DNA of 64,000 nucleotides from an uncultured Nitrospiraceae bacterium (GTDB lineage: Bacteria; Nitrospirota; Nitrospiria; Nitrospirales; Nitrospiraceae). Under the pieces are notes generated by a model. It was not told the origin of the DNA. It made no database searches and worked only from the letters and a program-made list of their open reading frames with translations. How positions within the stretch are numbered: the stretch's first letter is position 1; each line of letters starts with the position of its first letter. This document shows, in pieces, positions 10,367 to 42,902 of this stretch. A program made the translations under genes and the position numbers. The DNA lies in assembly GCA_963846575.1 (NCBI GenBank), contig CAWJWJ010000002.1:1824001-1888000 (forward strand), written 5' to 3'.

Positions 10367-10372
10367 CGCCCC

Positions 10373-13300
10373 GTGGCATCTCAATTCGTCCATCTGCATC
10401 TGCATACCCAATATAGCCTGCTCGACGGCGCCAACCAGATCGACCCCCTGATGCAACAGGTGAAGGCGTTCGGTCAACCGGCTGTCGCGATGACCGATCA
10501 TGGCAATATGTTCGGTGCGGTGGAATTTTATCGCAAAGCGAAGGAAGCCGGGGTCAAACCCATCATCGGGTGCGAAGCCTATATGGCTCCGGGTAGCCGG
10601 CTCGAAAAGAATTCACACCTTGCGCACAACGACTACTACCATCTGATTCTGCTCGCCACAAACCTCAAGGGATACCAGAATCTCATCAAGCTGGTAAGCA
10701 AAGCATACCTTGAAGGGTTCTATTACAAGCCACGGATGGATAAGGAAATTCTCCAGCAACACCATGAAGGGTTGATCGGACTGTCAGGTTGTCTCAGCGG
10801 GGAAGTGGCCTATCTGATCGGGCAGAAGGATTTGGCAGGTGCCACGCAAGCGGCTGGAGAGTATCGCGAGATCTTCGGGAAGGATAACTATTACCTGGAA
10901 CTTCAGGCCAATGGTCTTGAGCATCAACGCATTGCCAACGACGGACTCCTGGAGATCCATAAAAAGCTCGGGATCCCGCTCGCCGGCACCAACGATTGCC
11001 ACTACCTGAAGAAAGAAGATTCGCGGCCGCATGACCTCATGCTCTGCTTGCAGACCGGGAAGACCATCAACGATCCCAATCGGATGAAGTTCGATACGGA
11101 CCAACTCTACGTGAAATCCACGGACCAGGCGTTGGCGGAATTCAAGGAAATGCCGTCGGCCGTGTCGAATACCGTCCGGATCGCGGAAGCTTGCACCCTC
11201 GACCTCGCGCTCAACAAAACGTACCTGCCGCAGTTCAAGGTGCCGGAAGGGTTCACGCGCGAAACCTACGTGGAACAGCTGGCCATGGAAGGCTTGAGCG
11301 CGCGCCTGAAAGAGCGCCCGAGCCCGATTCCGGAGCTGGCCTACCAAGTCCGCCTGACGGAAGAACTGACGGTCATCTGCTCGATGGGATTCGCCGGCTA
11401 CTTTCTCATCGTGTGGGACATCATCAAGTTCGCCCGCTCGCGCGGCATTCCCGTCGGACCGGGCCGCGGCTCCGCCGCCGGCAGCCTCGTGGCCTACGCC
11501 CTCCGTATCACCGATCTCGATCCGCTGGTGTACTCGCTGCTTGTTCGAGCGTTTCTTGAATCCCGAGCGCGTCTCCCTCCCCGATATCGACATGGACTTC
11601 TGCATGGATCGCCGGGATGAGGTGATCAACTACGTCATCGACAAGTACGGCAAGGATCACGTCGCGCAGATCATCACGTTCGGCACCTCGGGGCCAAGGC
11701 AGCCATTCGCGACGTCGGCCGCGTGCTTGGAAATGCCCTATGCCGAGGTCGATCGCGTCGCCAAGCTCGTACCCGACGATTTGAACGATGACGCTCGACA
11801 GGCGCTCGAACAGGAACCGCGTCTGCGCGATCTCGTCGACAACCGACCCGAAGGTGAAGGAACTGATGTCCGTGGCGCAGTCGCTCGAAGGCCTCGCGCG
11901 CCATGCCTCCACCCACGCGGCGGGCGTCGTCATCTCCGATCAGGCCCGCTCACGGAACACGTGCCGCTCTACAAAGGCGCCAAGGATGAAATCGTCACCC
12001 AATACTCGATGGGTGACGTCGAAAAGATCGGTCTCGTCAAATTCGATTTTCTGGGGTTCAAGACCCTGACGATGATTCAAACGTGCGGAAGTGCTGATGA
12101 ATGAGGGACATCCCGATCGGCCACCGCTGGTCCGTCGAGCAACTGTCCGTTCGACGACCCCAAGACCTTCGCGCTGCTCTCGTCGGGTAAGACCACCGGC
12201 GTGTTCCAGTTGGAAAGTTCCGGCATGCGCGATCTGCTGATCGGACTCAAGCCGGACCGGTTCGAGGACATCATCGCCATCATTGCGCTCTATCGTCCCG
12301 GTCCGATGGACCTCATTCCCGGACTTCATCAAACGCAAGCAGGGCAAGATCCCGATCGCCTATGAGACGCCTGAACTCGAACCGATCCTGAAGGACACCT
12401 ACGGCGTCATCGTCTACCAGGAACAGGTGATGGCCATCGCCAACAAGGTGGCCGGCTTCTCGCTCGGCCAAGCCGACATTCTCCGCCGCGCGATGGGCAA
12501 GAAGAAGCCGGAGGAGATGGAAAAGCTCCGCGTCGCAGTTCCTGGCCGGCGCCAAGGCGAAAAAGATTCCCGAGAAGAAGGCCGACAAGCTCTACGAACT
12601 GATCCAGAAGTTTGCGGGTACGGGTTCAACAAGTCCCACGCGGCGGCCTATGCCGTCGTCTGTTACCACACGGCCTATTTCAAGGCGCACTATCCGACCG
12701 AGTTCATGGCGTCTTGATGACGACCGACATGGGCAACGCCGACAAGATCGTCGGGTATTTCACGGAATGCCGCGACCTCGGCATTCACGTCCTGCCGCCG
12801 GACGTGAACAGAGCCACAAGCACTTCACGGTGGTGAACAACGCCATTCGATTCGGCATGGCCGCCATCAAGAACGTCGGCGAGGGCGCCGTCGAATCGAT
12901 CATCGACGTTCGCAATGAGACGGGCCCCTTCAGGTCCTTCTTCGATCTGTTTCGCCGGGTCGATCTTGCGCAAAGTTGAACAAGCGCATGATCGAAGGGC
13001 TGATCAAGACCGGCGCGTTTGATTCCATGGGCGGCCAACGCTCGCAATATCTGGCCGTCCTCGATCAAGCCGTGGATGAAGGCACGAGCATTCAAAAGGA
13101 ACGCGCTCGCGGCCAGACCAGTATCTTCGGCGACGAGATGGACGGGCGCCGCAGACGCTCGCGGAACCGACCCTGCCGATGTCCCGGAGTGGAGTCAGGG
13201 CGAGCTGTTGAAATACGAGCGGGAACTGACCGGCTTCTATATTCGTGCCCACCCGCTGGCCCGCTACGAGGCGACAATCCAGCTGTTCGCCAACAGCCAC

Positions 13301-13834
13301 GACCATGCAAATCCGCCGACGTGCCTGATGGACGCGAAGTAAAGCTTTGCGGCATCGTCACGACGGTCAAATCGATGCTCACAAAGAAGGGCGACCGGAT
13401 GGCCTACGTGACGCTCGAGGATCTACACGGCGTCGTAGAGAGTGATAGTCTTTCCCGATCTCTATCGCGACCATGCCGACATGATCGTGCCCGAACGGGT
13501 GGTGCGCCTGACAGGCACGGTGGATCGCGGAGACAAAGGGACCAAGTTTCGCGGGAGTAAAATTGAACCGTTGGCCGAGCTGCAGAACACAGGGATTTCG
13601 CGAGTCATGATTCGCTTGAACGCCGGCCCAACCGCCTCCACCAGGCTCCCGATGCTCCGGCAGGTCTTCCAGAAACACCCCGGCTCCTCGACCGTCTCCC
13701 TCATCATGGGATTGGGGGAAACCATCGAAGCCCGGACCTCGCCGCTTCCGAACGTGAAGATTACGCCCAGCGAGCATTTCGTCGCAGATATCGAGGAAGT
13801 GCTAGGCAAGGGCGCCATCACTTTGGTAACCTAG
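10373..13834 (+). CDS. dnaE: DNA polymerase III alpha subunit; reading frame broken by many single-base indels after about 11540 (probably sequence errors)
   Basis: [59 protein letters not shown] and the OB fold are all present in order across shifting frames. Confidence 0.95.
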
Positions 13835-13871
13835 GCGGGCTCGGACCACACCCTTAAGGGGGTTCACCAGT

Positions 13872-14844
13872 ATGAGAGATTACCTCGACTTTGAAAAACC
13901 GATCCGCGAGCTCGAAGAAAAGATCGAGAAGCTCGCGTCCGCCGAATCGCCCGAAATCCGGCACGCAAGACGAAATCCGCAAGCTTCGGACGAAACTCGC
14001 TCAGGTCGAACATCAGCTCTACAGCGGCCTGACTCCCTGGCAGCGCACCCAATTGGCCCGCCATCCCCAGCGGCCCAGCGACGCTCGACTACATCCATGA
14101 GCTGTCCCGTGACTTTCTTGAACTTCATGGCGACCGCAATTTCGGTGACGACCGCGCCATTGTGGGAGGCTTCGCCCGGTTCAACGACCGATCGGTCATG
14201 GTCATCGGCCATCAAAAGGGGAAGACGCTCAAGGAACGCATGCAGCGGAATTTCGGCATGCCCAACCCGGAAGGTTATCGCAAGGCGTTACGGCTCATGC
14301 GGCTGGCGGAGAAATTCGGCCGTCCGATCGTCACGTTGATCGATACCCCCGGCGCCTATCCCGGCATCGGCGCCGAGGAGCGCGGACAGGCCGAAGCGAT
14401 CGCCAGGAATCTGTTCGTCATGTCGCGGCTCGACGTGCCCATCATCTCCGTGGTGATCGGAGAAGGCGGCAGCGGCGGCGCCCTCGCGTTGGGTGTGCGC
14501 GACCGCATCCTCATGCTGGAACATTCGGTCTATTCGGTCATTTCTCCGGAAGGCTGCGCGGCCATTCTCTATGGGACGATCCGACCAAGGTGCCGGATGC
14601 GGCGGCCTCGCTGAAGATGACCGCACAAGACCTGGTCGGACTCGGTATCGTCGATGAAGTGATTCCTGAACCGCTCGGCGGGGCCCACCGGGACCCCCGG
14701 GCCATGTCCGACCGGGTCGCGAAAGCGCTCACGAATCAATTGTATGGCTTGGTCGAACTTCCCACGGAACAACTCATCACGCAGCGCGATCAGAAGTTCC
14801 GGAAGATGGGCGTGGTCGGCGGACTCGTTCCCGCTGCAGTCTAA
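13872..14844 (+). CDS. accA: Acetyl-CoA carboxylase carboxyltransferase alpha; several indels (probably sequence errors)
   Basis: [53 protein letters not shown] in shifting frames. Confidence 0.93.
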
Positions 14845-14934
14845 CCCTCGAATCTCTTCTCTCCCGCCTCTCCGTTCCTGACGATCTGAGCGACGTCCGC
14901 TCAGCAACTCTCACGACAGGGCGTGGCTTGAGCC

Positions 14935-22753: not shown

Positions 22754-23200
22754 TTACCTTTGTGTCTTCCGCCATGCCAGGAGCCGTGCGGCCACGGCCT
22801 CGACCTGGTCGCTGGTCAGTGTAGCGGCCAGGGCATCGCGGCGCAGGCGCGCCCGCCCGCTATCCTGACGGCTCGCGAGGGAATACCAGAAATAGGCTTC
22901 GAGCGCATCCTGATCGACTCCCCGCCCCAGCTCATACAGCAGGCCGAGGTCGCGCTGCGCCAATCCATGGCCCTGGTCCGCCGCGCGCGTTAACCAGCGT
23001 ACCGCCTGCGCGCCGTCAGCAGCTCCCAACGTTCCCATGACCAAGGGCTGACCCAGCATCCATTGGGCATTCGCATCACCCTCCGCCGCCAAGACTTCCA
23101 GCTGATGCGGCAACAGGGACTCGGCAGCTACGATCGGCCCACCGGAAGACAGGAGCAAGACCATGGCCGCCGCCCCGCCTGTCCAGGCCCGCTGCTTCAT
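22754..23200 (-). CDS. Secreted Sel1-repeat protein
   Basis: Signal peptide; AADQGHGLAQRDLGLLYELGRGV Sel1 repeat. Confidence 0.85.
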   Translation of the reverse strand: MKQRAWTGGAAAMVLLLSSGGPIVAAESLLPHQLEVLAAEGDANAQWMLGQPLVMGTLGAADGAQAVRWLTRAADQGHGLAQRDLGLLYELGRGVDQDALEAYFWYSLASRQDSGRARLRRDALAATLTSDQVEAVAARLLAWRKTQR

Positions 23201-24546
23201 GTCATTTCTCCCGGATCCTTCACCGAACCTGCCCCTGAGGTGAACCGGCCCGACGGATCAAACCGGCGTTCCGGCACCCGTGAGGCAAACGTCTGATCGG
23301 CCAACAGGGCTTCGGCAGCTTTTCGCCCCGATACCAGCGCACCGTCCAGCGTGCCGGTCTCGCAATAGTCGCCGCATTGATACAGACCTGGCTTGACCCG
23401 GGAGGCAGCAGGCCGGTGGTGCTCCCTCAGGAGTTCGATCGGGGGCAGGGCCCCGGGGATGTGATCGGTCCGCAGCAGCCGCCAGGCATTGACCTTCGTG
23501 CCGAACCAGTCGCGCAGCTGTCTCCACAATGCCTGCTGAATCTCGTCGAATGTTGCAGCCTTGTCCCAATCGTCGGACAGACTCAGCGATACCAAGGAAC
23601 GCCCGACCGGCGCGTAAGCCGGGGCCACTTCACTCAACACCGACGCGGTTCGCACCGGCCCCTCTCCTTCGCCGTTCACGATCAACCAGGGACCACGCAC
23701 GGGAGGGGTCGGCGCCTCGAAATAAAGACAGGTCGCGGGCCGGGCCGGGGCGGCTGGTACGGGATCTCCGCGCAACGCGGCGGCCGTCGCGTAATCCGTC
23801 GCAAGGACCAGGGCATGACCCGGCACACGCTCACCGGACTCGAGCACAGCCCCGCTTGTCTCCACATGACGCACCGGTGAGTTCAGTCTGATCGATCCGG
23901 CCGGGAGGGTATCGGCCAACTGCCGGGCGATCGCTCCCATTCCTCCTTGCGGCAGGGCAATCGCGCCTCGCGAAAAAGCAGCCCAGACGAATTCAAACAG
24001 CCGGCAGGGCGTCTGCAGGTCCCGCTCCAAAAACACTCCGCCGAGAAAGGGGCGAAAAAACCGTGTCAGCATGGAGGGCGAAAAACCGTACTCCTGCAGC
24101 AGCTCCTGCGTCGAACGCGCGCGCCGGTCTTCCGACGCACAGAGGCGGTTGTGCAGGGCATCCTGCCTGAGTCGAAGGATCGCGAGTTTGTCCCGGAACG
24201 AGCCGATGGGACTCATGAGGGTGGAGAGGATATCCTGCGGGCGTCGCAGCGGGTCGCTGAACCGGTGAAACCGGCCGGCGTACCGGATGAGGGCACCGGG
24301 ATGGAACGGCCAGAGTCGCAGCCGGGCGTAATCCAGGGCGCTGCGGGCTTCCGGATACCCGCTGAGAAAGACCTGAAATCCGCGATCGAGTTGGAACCCC
24401 TCCACGCAATCGGTACGGACCCGTCCCCCGACGTCATCGGACGCCTCCAGGACCATGCAGGAGAGATTCGCCTCAACCAACCGCCGCGCGCAGGCCAAAC
24501 CGGCCAGACCGGCGCCGACGATGAGGACGCGAGTGTGAGCAGACAT
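23197..24546 (-). CDS. FAD-dependent oxidoreductase (amine oxidase/protoporphyrinogen oxidase-like)
   Basis: IVGAGLAGL, LEASDDVGGRVRT, LDRGFQV, CGDY..GTLDGALVSG; likely start ATG 24546. Confidence 0.9.
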   Translation of the reverse strand: MSAHTRVLIVGAGLAGLACARRLVEANLSCMVLEASDDVGGRVRTDCVEGFQLDRGFQVFLSGYPEARSALDYARLRLWPFHPGALIRYAGRFHRFSDPLRRPQDILSTLMSPIGSFRDKLAILRLRQDALHNRLCASEDRRARSTQELLQEYGFSPSMLTRFFRPFLGGVFLERDLQTPCRLFEFVWAAFSRGAIALPQGGMGAIARQLADTLPAGSIRLNSPVRHVETSGAVLESGERVPGHALVLATDYATAAALRGDPVPAAPARPATCLYFEAPTPPVRGPWLIVNGEGEGPVRTASVLSEVAPAYAPVGRSLVSLSLSDDWDKAATFDEIQQALWRQLRDWFGTKVNAWRLLRTDHIPGALPPIELLREHHRPAASRVKPGLYQCGDYCETGTLDGALVSGRKAAEALLADQTFASRVPERRFDPSGRFTSGAGSVKDPGEMT

Positions 24547-24600
24547 GATCGTTATTGTAGACGGAGCCCGAGCCAGACTCCAGCGGCAAGTGATGTTATT

Positions 24601-24625
24601 GGGGTCAGGTCTTGCAATCACACAT
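24601..24625 (-). repeat. RAYT-associated 25-bp motif, copy 1 (left inverted repeat)
   Basis: GGGGTCAGGTCTTGCAATCACACAT. Confidence 0.95.
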
Positions 24626-24649
24626 TCTCGGGACGTACACTCGCGTCCT

Positions 24650-25486
24650 ATGGCTCGCCCACTGCGTCTTGAATTTCCCGGCGCGGTCTACCATGTCACA
24701 AGCCGCGGCAATGCCCGGCAGAACATTGTGCATGACGATCGTGACCGGTCGCACTTCCTCTCGTTGCTGGCCCATGTCATCGATCGGTATGGATGGCTCT
24801 GTCATGCCTTTTGCCTGATGGACAACCACTACCACCTCCTCATCGAAACACCGAAACCAAACCTCTCCATCGGCATGCGTCAGCTGAACGGACTCTACAC
24901 GCAACGCTACAATCGCCGTTACGAGCGGGCGGGACACCTGTTCCAGGGACGCTACAAGGCGATTCTGGTGGAAAAAGAATCGCATCTCCTCGAACTCTGC
25001 CGATATGTCGTGCTGAATCCCGTCGGGGCCAGATTGGCGACGCATCCCCGGCTGTGGAACTGGAGTAGCTATCGCGCGACAGCAGGCGAGGCACCGGCTC
25101 CGGAATGGCTGACGACCGACTGGATTCTGAAACAGTTCGGCGTGCGGGCCGGCTCGGCTCGAGACAGATACCGGGCCTTCGTAAGCGAGAAGCACCGCCA
25201 GCGTCAGCCATGGGATCAACTCGTGGGGCAGATTTATCTGGGGACGGCAGACTTCGTGGCAAGACACCAGCCCGATCGGGTGATCCGAGACATTCCCCGC
25301 CGGCAAACACAGGCCCACCGCCCGTCGCTGCAACAGCTGTTCGACGCGCGAGGGAAGCAGCCCCAGCTCGTGCACAAAGCCTATCGACGGTACGGGTATC
25401 GCCTCAACGAGATTGCGGCGCATTTGGGGGTGCATCCGGCCACGATCAGCCGTCGTTTAAAGCAGGCTGAAGAGGAACATGTGTGA
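24650..25486 (+). CDS. REP-associated tyrosine transposase-like (Y1 HUH) protein with C-terminal HTH
   Basis: MARPLRLEFPGAVYHVTSRGN, HUH motif CLMDNHYHLL, GHLFQGRY, catalytic RYVVLNPV, C-terminal LNEIAAHLGVHPATISR HTH. Confidence 0.92.
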   Translation: MARPLRLEFPGAVYHVTSRGNARQNIVHDDRDRSHFLSLLAHVIDRYGWLCHAFCLMDNHYHLLIETPKPNLSIGMRQLNGLYTQRYNRRYERAGHLFQGRYKAILVEKESHLLELCRYVVLNPVGARLATHPRLWNWSSYRATAGEAPAPEWLTTDWILKQFGVRAGSARDRYRAFVSEKHRQRQPWDQLVGQIYLGTADFVARHQPDRVIRDIPRRQTQAHRPSLQQLFDARGKQPQLVHKAYRRYGYRLNEIAAHLGVHPATISRRLKQAEEEHV

Positions 25487-25503
25487 TTGCAAGACCTGAC
25501 CCC
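25479..25503 (+). repeat. RAYT-associated motif, copy 2 (right inverted repeat)
   Basis: ATGTGTGATTGCAAGACCTGACCCC; contains the transposase stop codon. Confidence 0.95.
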
Positions 25504-26232
25504 ACGAAAAATGACCCCACGAAAAAGTTTACCGTCGATCGTCTGCTTTCCAAGCTGGGCATCACCAGCCGCAGTACGGCGCAGGAGTGGATTCGCGCCG
25601 GCCGGGTCCGCGTCAATCAACGTGTCGTGCGCCTTCCCGGCACGTGGGTCTCATGGCCGGGCGACAGCCTCTCGCTCGACGGGCAGCCCGTGCAGGAGGC
25701 CAGCCGACGCTTCATCCTCTTTCACAAACCCAAGGGCCTGGTCACCACGCACGAGGACGAGAAGGGCCGCAGCACCATTTTTGACGCGCTGCCGGAGGAC
25801 ATGCGGTCACTGCATGCCGTCGGGCGGCTGGACCAGGCGACCAGCGGGCTGCTTTTACTGACCAACGACTCGATGCTCTCGAGCCACCTCACAGACCCGG
25901 CGCAACAGTTCCCCCGCCTCTATCTCGTAACTGTGCGCGGCAATGTGACGGAGAGTGCCCGAGAAGCGGCCATCACCGGCCTGCTGGATCAAGGGGAGCG
26001 CCTTCACTGTCAAAACGTGACCATCCAGAAACGCTCCGGACGCGAGTCGCATTTGGAGGTAACGCTGACCGAAGGCAAGAACCGGGAGATCAGGCGACTG
26101 TTCAAGGCGCTTGGACACGAGGTGACGAGGTTGCGGCGCATCCAGTACGGGCCGTTCCTCCTCGGCGACCTGCCACCGGGAGGCTGGCGGGAACTCACAG
26201 TCGAGGAAGCGAGAAACGCACTCCAATCGTGA
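25483..26232 (+). CDS. rRNA pseudouridine synthase (RsuA/RluB family)
   Basis: S4 domain VDRLLSKLGITSR, FHKPKG, VGRLDQATSGLLLLTND, LTEGKNREIRR. Confidence 0.92.
   Translation: MIARPDPTKNDPTKKFTVDRLLSKLGITSRSTAQEWIRAGRVRVNQRVVRLPGTWVSWPGDSLSLDGQPVQEASRRFILFHKPKGLVTTHEDEKGRSTIFDALPEDMRSLHAVGRLDQATSGLLLLTNDSMLSSHLTDPAQQFPRLYLVTVRGNVTESAREAAITGLLDQGERLHCQNVTIQKRSGRESHLEVTLTEGKNREIRRLFKALGHEVTRLRRIQYGPFLLGDLPPGGWRELTVEEARNALQS
25497..25526 (+). repeat. Exact 15-bp tandem duplication
   Basis: TGACCCCACGAAAAA x2 (25497-25511, 25512-25526). Confidence 0.95.
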
Positions 26233-32563: not shown

Positions 32564-32588
32564 ATGTTTGATTGCAAGACCTGACCCC
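32564..32588 (+). repeat. RAYT-associated motif, copy 3 (24/25 match)
   Basis: ATGTTTGATTGCAAGACCTGACCCC. Confidence 0.92.
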
Positions 32589-37813: not shown

Positions 37814-37838
37814 ATGTGAGATTGCAAGACCTGACCCC
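37814..37838 (+). repeat. RAYT-associated motif, copy 4 (24/25 match)
   Basis: ATGTGAGATTGCAAGACCTGACCCC. Confidence 0.92.
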
Positions 37839-42848: not shown

Positions 42849-42873
42849 CTGTAGGATTGCAAGACCTGACCCT
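42849..42873 (+). repeat. RAYT-associated motif, copy 5 (21/25 match)
   Basis: CTGTAGGATTGCAAGACCTGACCCT. Confidence 0.9.
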
Positions 42874-42902
42874 AACCTTCCTCTTGACCCTAACCTTCCT
42901 CT
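42867..42902 (+). repeat. Exact 18-bp tandem duplication
   Basis: TGACCCTAACCTTCCTCT x2 (42867-42884, 42885-42902). Confidence 0.95.

Follow-up and report, generated by a model that had tools for sequence, protein, structure and literature searches.

A probably long-resident TIRtron in an uncultured Nitrospiraceae genome, with tandem duplications at repeat tips that may record nicking and resealing

Anatomy of the element

The window, a 64,000-nt stretch of the genome of an uncultured Nitrospiraceae bacterium (GCA_963846575.1), contains an intact gene encoding a 278-aa HUH/Y1 protein between perfect inverted repeats of 25 nt, or 26 nt with the flanking T/A (Table 1). A sequence-only reading of this DNA had noted 25/25 repeats that tightly enclose the gene, and this is true: the arms (24600-24625 and 25479-25504) are 100% complementary over 26 nt, and the runner-up pair within 4 kb reaches 74%. 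The stop codon of the transposase gene (TGA, 25484-25486) lies inside the right terminal inverted repeat (TIR), as had also been noted. Five sites in the window match the TIR 24-mer at three or fewer mismatches, compared with 0.00 expected from 100 shuffles. No hairpin was found at either element end (folding z 0.06 to 2.3), which agrees with the earlier statement that this element has TIRs instead of hairpins, and no flanking GTAG-tagged hairpin REPs were found around the gene. The outer flanks of the element are GTTATT and ACGAAA, and a classical target site duplication (TSD) is absent at this copy.

The left TIR probably holds the -35 box of the transposase gene. A predicted promoter (TTGCAA, 18 nt, TACACT) ends 8 nt before the transposase ATG, and the transcript would likely be leaderless. 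The same pattern occurs at 14 of 15 gene-proximal TIRs, compared with 0 of 54 other copies. The predicted promoter escaped a generic scan because its 8/12 consensus matches are one under the requirement of the scanner. We infer that the protein may repress its own gene through TIR binding.

Table 1. Features in and around the element (window coordinates)
Feature	Position	Strand	Description
FAD-dependent oxidoreductase (left neighbour)	23197..24546	-	native upstream DNA to ~24588, a dozen bases from the TIR
Left TIR	24601..24625	+	conserved tip GGGGTCA; inner part element-specific
Predicted transposase promoter	24612..24641	+	TTGCAA (within TIR), 18 nt, TACACT
TIRYT gene	24650..25486	+	HUH H60-Y61-H62, catalytic Y119 in YxxxNP, HTH ~aa 237-277
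Right TIR	25479..25503	-	contains transposase stop codon and overlapping GTG start of next gene
RluB/RsuA-type pseudouridine synthase gene	25483..26232	+	native 5' part apparently replaced by TIR; GTGA overlap with transposase stop
Tandem duplication, exact 15 bp	25497..25526	.	spans right tip; repeat heptamer plus 8 nt of flank
Solo TIR	32564..32588	-	orientation of right TIR
Solo TIR	37814..37838	-	orientation of right TIR
Solo TIR (42849-42873) with tip-spanning 18-bp tandem duplication (42867-42902)	42849..42902	-	

The transposase and its class

The window protein matches Pfam Y1_Tnp over aa 13-120 (E 4e-14). Matches to HTH families at aa 244-275 are weak (best E 7e-5, below family cut-offs), with HTH_23 at E 9e-4 and HTH_28 at E 1e-2, both below cut-off, and an AlphaFold2 model (pLDDT 90) places helices at aa 237-277. 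The description of the protein as a Y1 HUH enzyme with a C-terminal HTH therefore stands. Among the 36 relatives in an alignment, neither H60 nor H62 varies, Y119 of the YxxxNP motif (YVVLNP in the window protein) is kept in at least 90%, and Bac_DnaA_C was matched in 8. The closest named relatives come from Nitrospira MAGs (72-76% identity), which makes Nitrospira the probable host genus.

The sequence-only reading had used IS200/IS605 as its yardstick, but the closest solved relative is E. coli TnpA-REP (4ER8). This structure is the top match of the AlphaFold2 model (E 2.8e-7), followed by the TnpA proteins of ISDra2 and IS608, and was also found by a sequence profile search (E 7e-4). The NCBIfam model for REP-associated tyrosine transposases (NF047646) scores 75.2 bits (cut-off 80). 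The IS200 model (NF033573) scores 18.6 bits (cut-off 55), which places the protein outside the class 1 TnpA (YxxxQ).

The same reading considered the architecture unusual for HUH enzymes. However, a Y1 gene between TIRs, with an HTH tail, has already been described and is not new. TIR-flanked tyrosine-transposase genes with a GGGGWSAS motif were named TIRtrons or TIRYTs by Di Nocera, De Gregorio & Rocco (2013, PMC3733652). Quentin et al. (2018, PMC6006769) assigned 20 of 26 TIRYTs to subclass 2.1, every one HTH-tailed, reported the subclass in 14.9% of strains and, in the sections concerned, left recognition of the TIR by the HTH undecided. To judge from its sequence, the window element is almost certainly a member of this group. 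It encodes an HUH motif and a catalytic Tyr, its repeats are TIRs rather than REPs and belong to a genome-wide TIR family, and GGGGTCAG, a GGGGWSAS-type tip, is present at both TIR tips. It further resembles the TIRtrons described in PMC3733652 in that the TIRs may overlap the gene and form moderately abundant families.

We assign the protein to TnpA-Y1 subclass 2.1, probably 2.1.2, based on its motif, its HTH and described features. YxxxNP is present, as are C-terminal HTH_23/HTH_28 matches, although these are sub-cut-off. As in the subclass 2.1 members described in PMC6006769, the protein is long, its C-terminal HTH is of the Bac_DnaA_C/HTH_23/HTH_28 kind, REP hairpins are not found nearby and the taxonomic distribution is patchy. 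The passages of PMC3733652 concerned with TIRtrons offer no mechanism, and neither a promoter in the TIR nor a TIR-supplied start codon was found described there; the string 'duplicat' has no occurrence in the main text of that paper, where tip duplications are not described. No later work, experimental or biochemical, on subclass 2.1 was found in the searched literature, which mostly does not include subscription journals.

Other classes fit less well. The element lacks the GTAG hairpin REPs that accompany RAYTs in REPtrons. E. coli TnpA-REP/RAYT shares with it the closest solved fold, a low-copy, long-resident gene and an associated repeat family (PMC8266576, in the parts on this protein), but it binds single-stranded GTAG hairpins, is 165 aa long and has no HTH tail, whereas the repeats in the window are non-hairpin TIRs. 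IS200/IS605 TnpA proteins (IS608, ISDra2) have the same HUH/Y1 fold and their elements also make no TSD; they differ in having YxxxQ and asymmetric subterminal hairpins, and such hairpins are absent here. An assignment to the DDE insertion sequences disagrees with the HUH fold and with TSDs not being in excess (62 elements). IS91/ISCR and Helitron elements are also counted among the HUH relatives (PMC8266576).

Relatives and unit boundaries

From genome contigs we collected 77 relative loci. Of these, 22 were partial and were set aside, which left 55 full-length loci with flanks. Flanking inverted repeats (score ≥14) occur in 37 of the 55 full-length relatives, compared with 0 of 96 control positions, and conservation of the repeats in homologs, on which the sequence-only reading had staked its interpretation, is thus confirmed and extends across phyla. 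The repeats of most of those 37 relatives start with RGGGTCA. Elements at unrelated sites are similar from tip to tip and not beyond: L112 and L119 are 90% alike over 937 nt and L116 and L118 are 92% alike over 1064 nt, and in both pairs the likeness stops at the tips. Among plasmid records, 26 were matched, one of them near full length.

Direct repeats of at least 3 nt flank 3 of 62 two-ended elements, compared with 2.9 by random pairing; thus, the TIR element family makes no TSD. No clean empty/filled pairs were found among the 62 elements versus the fetched loci, nor were any clean pairs found across five relatives for short elements (MITEs) in genome G018. These MITEs, of ~330-380 bp and bounded by the window-type TIR, occur at L069-L070 (G018:C6:330-349 kb) and in G010, and six copies were aligned.

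HTH binding to the repeat is plausible. Co-variation between the HTH and the TIR peaks at residues 256-270 (r 0.36, n 43) and is reached by 0 of 200 permutations; with near-identical sequences removed, it is reached by 16 of 200 at n 26, where the peak ties with residues 36-50, and by 85 of 200 at n 20.

Other TIR copies

The genome contains 13 TIR copies, compared with 0 in a reversed-genome control: the pair that bounds the gene and three solo TIRs in the window, a group of five at C2:1115-1127 kb, two more at C2:2042-2044 kb and a single isolated copy. The window solos (Table 1) lie 5-7 kb apart at accessory-gene junctions, and a same-strand run of five TIRs is located at G000:C2:1115084-1127398. 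At G000:C2:2041612-2041666, a TIR is joined to ~54 bp that are 80% like the 3' end of the TIRYT gene, a probable relic; in the corresponding host region, G001 has an intact TIRtron and G018 has many MITEs. An integron-like cassette array was considered for the solos and did not hold up as a general arrangement. All three window solos point at the transposase gene, as do those of several genus relatives, but in other phyla 19 are inward and 18 outward, and, judged by genomes that lack the element, the intervening genes often belong natively to the region.

At L065 (G021:C35), two TIRs at ~18130 and ~19044 have different junctions and share a 5-nt deletion, and the orthologous sites in relatives are intact. 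The shared deletion suggests that TIR sequence was copied between sites. The motif GGGGTCAGGTCT (L198-L277) forms REP-like back-to-back dimers as well as self-complementary units on many metagenome contigs, mostly with no transposase within 1.2 kb.

Outer flanks of at least 3 nt are shared in 9.5% of 461 within-locus pairs versus 3.7% of pairs between loci, and none of the shared flanks reaches 8 nt; one 11-nt outer flank is shared between genomes. It is common to L034 1453 (G015) and L036 1478 (G014), together with an unusual first base; in one genome it borders a left TIR within a truncated gene, in the other a right TIR at an unrelated site. The case for ends that carry their old flank to new sites is weak, and a target preference could explain the shared flanks. 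Targets resembling the tip heptamer were considered and dropped, with 8 of 166 versus 6.8 expected at one mismatch, 46 versus 49.9 at two, and one suggestive case.

Tandem duplications at the repeat tips

An exact 15-bp tandem duplication across the right tip (25497-25511 = 25512-25526), overlooked in the sequence-only reading, consists of 8 nt of flank plus GGGGTCA. Short-read contigs of one study, possibly of the source sample, bridge it at 25330-25593 and 25463-25613 with zero differences, so that an assembly error is unlikely.

Such scars are frequent. Outer-junction tandem duplications of at least 8 nt occur at 13 of 69 Nitrospira-type copies (0.39 in shuffles), compared with 1 of 69 on the inner side, and at 34 of 134 copies in other phyla (0.6 expected). 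By a stricter definition, duplications are present at 46 of 202 TIR copies and 32 of 76 loci across phyla, counts that include copies of related genomes and are therefore not independent. Solo copies are affected too: by this criterion, 5 of this genome's 11 carry scars. An exact second GGGTCA lies 5-14 nt outside the tip in 23 of 202 copies (0.4 expected) and 0-4 nt outside in none.

The two edges of the duplications differ. The flank part measures 5-13 nt in 46 of 46, a range shaped by the search, which required at least four flank bases and capped the period at 44. The inner end falls at +7 in 17, at +1 to +3 in 15, at +6 in 1 and at +8 to +35 in 13. The +7 class comes from 14 loci, and 9 of its 17 duplications have zero microhomology. 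From this geometry, the duplications likely mark where the enzyme cuts and reseals DNA, and they point to a nick, a short copy and resealing.

History of the locus

The genome has one copy of the TIRYT gene and no second near-identical copy. The transposase is 71-78% identical to its relatives, in step with the neighbouring host gene (70-80%), which indicates that the element is long resident, and the gene is present in the same host region of several genus members, at different junctions. The sequence-only reading had proposed to look for an empty site between the oxidoreductase and pseudouridine synthase genes. In relatives lacking the element, the two flanks instead lie 370-850 bp apart, and the DNA that separates them usually includes a 130-aa gene and the 5' end of the synthase gene. 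Thus, the window site is a replacement or deletion junction, at which the element seems to have taken the place of the small gene and the 5' end of the synthase gene. The earlier claim that there is no TSD holds for the flanks as reported and for the family, but the site is not clean and, since it is such a junction, the absent TSD is uninformative at this copy.

Among 20 orthologous loci listed, three (this genome, G012 and G017) have a synthase start at a GTG within the TIR that overlaps the transposase stop, and the synthase frame is kept in all three despite differing junction lengths. The 15-bp duplication preserves this downstream frame as well, and the next in-frame start in this genome is codon 49, well within the S4 domain. 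It is likely that the pseudouridine synthase gene now depends on the promoter and start codon of the element, and this dependence may help to retain the element.

The protein could alternatively be a domesticated, non-mobile repeat-binding protein, acting as a self-repressor or regulator, and the duplications the product of ordinary polymerase slippage at a protein-bound site. We regard this as very improbable. The single copy and host-like divergence would agree with it, as would the overlap of the TIR with the predicted -35 box and the start of the downstream host gene in the TIR. However, the catalytic residues are conserved, and the likeness between copies at unrelated sites is confined to the stretch between the tips. 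The scars are also one-sided, and most are without the microhomology on which slippage depends.

Elsewhere in the window (~10370-14850; G000:C2:1834373-1838844), two genes that we take from their sequences to be dnaE-like and accA-like are called in several pieces in this assembly and are whole in relatives. These calls may reflect assembly frameshifts or a simple gene caller.

A proposed mechanism

The best explanation, to which we give modest confidence, is that the element is a long-resident TIRtron whose enzyme is predicted to nick 5-13 bases outside the repeat tip and then reseal. The enzyme likely binds duplex repeats, with the HTH holding the inner repeat and the catalytic domain reading the GGGGTCA tip. 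Its nick, 5-13 nt beyond the tip, would fall on the inward-running strand, and the enzyme would stay attached to the 5' end. Cleavage by HUH enzymes yields a 5'-phosphotyrosine and a 3'-OH, which can serve as a primer for synthesis or be resealed (PMC8266576, in its account of their chemistry). Host polymerase could extend the free 3'-OH into the repeat until halted by the bound protein, mostly stalling at +1 to +3 or +7, and resealing would leave a duplication such as 25497-25526. Rare longer or mis-joined events may relocate the unit, produce solo repeats and remove DNA nearby. IS91/ISCR and Helitron elements, which belong to another transposase family and have dissimilar ends, are comparable only in how they work, in that synthesis into the element is primed from the 3'-OH of a nick; the ends in the window are symmetric.

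A nick outside the tip, on the inward-running strand, fits best because the outer edge of the duplications is narrow and the inner edge variable. Nicking followed by a short copy and resealing has about an even chance of being the right mechanism. Against it, the sharp inner edge at +7 fits a fixed nick at this position equally well as a polymerase stall. Such a nick would cut the outward-running strand within the repeat, at CC^TGACCCC (after +7), and either its 3'-OH would be extended 12-20 nt outward and resealed, or a staggered double nick would be filled in. We consider this rather unlikely. That 17 of the 46 duplications, at 14 loci, end exactly at +7 with little microhomology speaks for it, and the C^T step is the dinucleotide cut by E. 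coli TnpA-REP (PMC8266576, where this enzyme is treated). This match is non-discriminating, however, with G at +8 in 16 of 17 of the +7 class versus 177 of 202 overall. A fixed internal nick by itself also leaves the 15 units at +1 to +3 and the tail to +35 unexplained, and the flank part stays at 5-13 nt in all inner-end classes.

The fold shared by TnpA-REP and IS200/IS605 TnpA raises a further route, in which the TIRs pair as a lagging-strand panhandle, the unit leaves as a single-stranded circle as in IS608 or RAYT-like systems, and the duplications are repair by-products. The lack of a TSD would suit this route, as would the REP-like dimers and clusters formed by TIR families. However, neither end has a hairpin, and partnerless solo TIRs in this genome are scarred likewise. 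Circle junctions were sought with a pattern limited to TIRs starting with GGGTCAGGTCT. This gave at least 125 back-to-back TIR stretches in metagenomes, and among the 80 loci listed the spacers range from 0 to 30 nt and lack the fixed length expected of circle junctions. A Y1 gene was present in two back-to-back TIR contigs, neither of them a circle junction, and viral contigs gave none. The panhandle route is quite improbable. Four low-depth DNA contig sets of one study contained no joints at TIRs, which is uninformative on activity.

If we return to a nick outside the tip with primed synthesis into the repeat, TIRYTs in general might be HUH enzymes that act on duplex inverted repeats, nicking about one helical turn outside, priming synthesis and resealing in a symmetric, rolling-circle-like manner. 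Element junctions would be repeatedly rewritten, solo repeats and deletions would be scattered, and elements could become fixed through takeover of host promoters and start codons. We offer this extension tentatively, at slightly less than an even chance.

Implications

The interest of this element rests on the nick geometry and the TIR-started host gene, not on its architecture. For the mechanism of subclass 2.1, the duplication scars suggest precise candidate nick coordinates, with two competing positions. If nicking, copying and resealing is the true mechanism, it would add a duplex-TIR mode to HUH transposition and would account for the solo repeats and local deletions found among Nitrospira-like genomes. 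With its start codon in the TIR, the pseudouridine synthase gene illustrates on a small scale one concrete way in which an element of this kind may become fixed.
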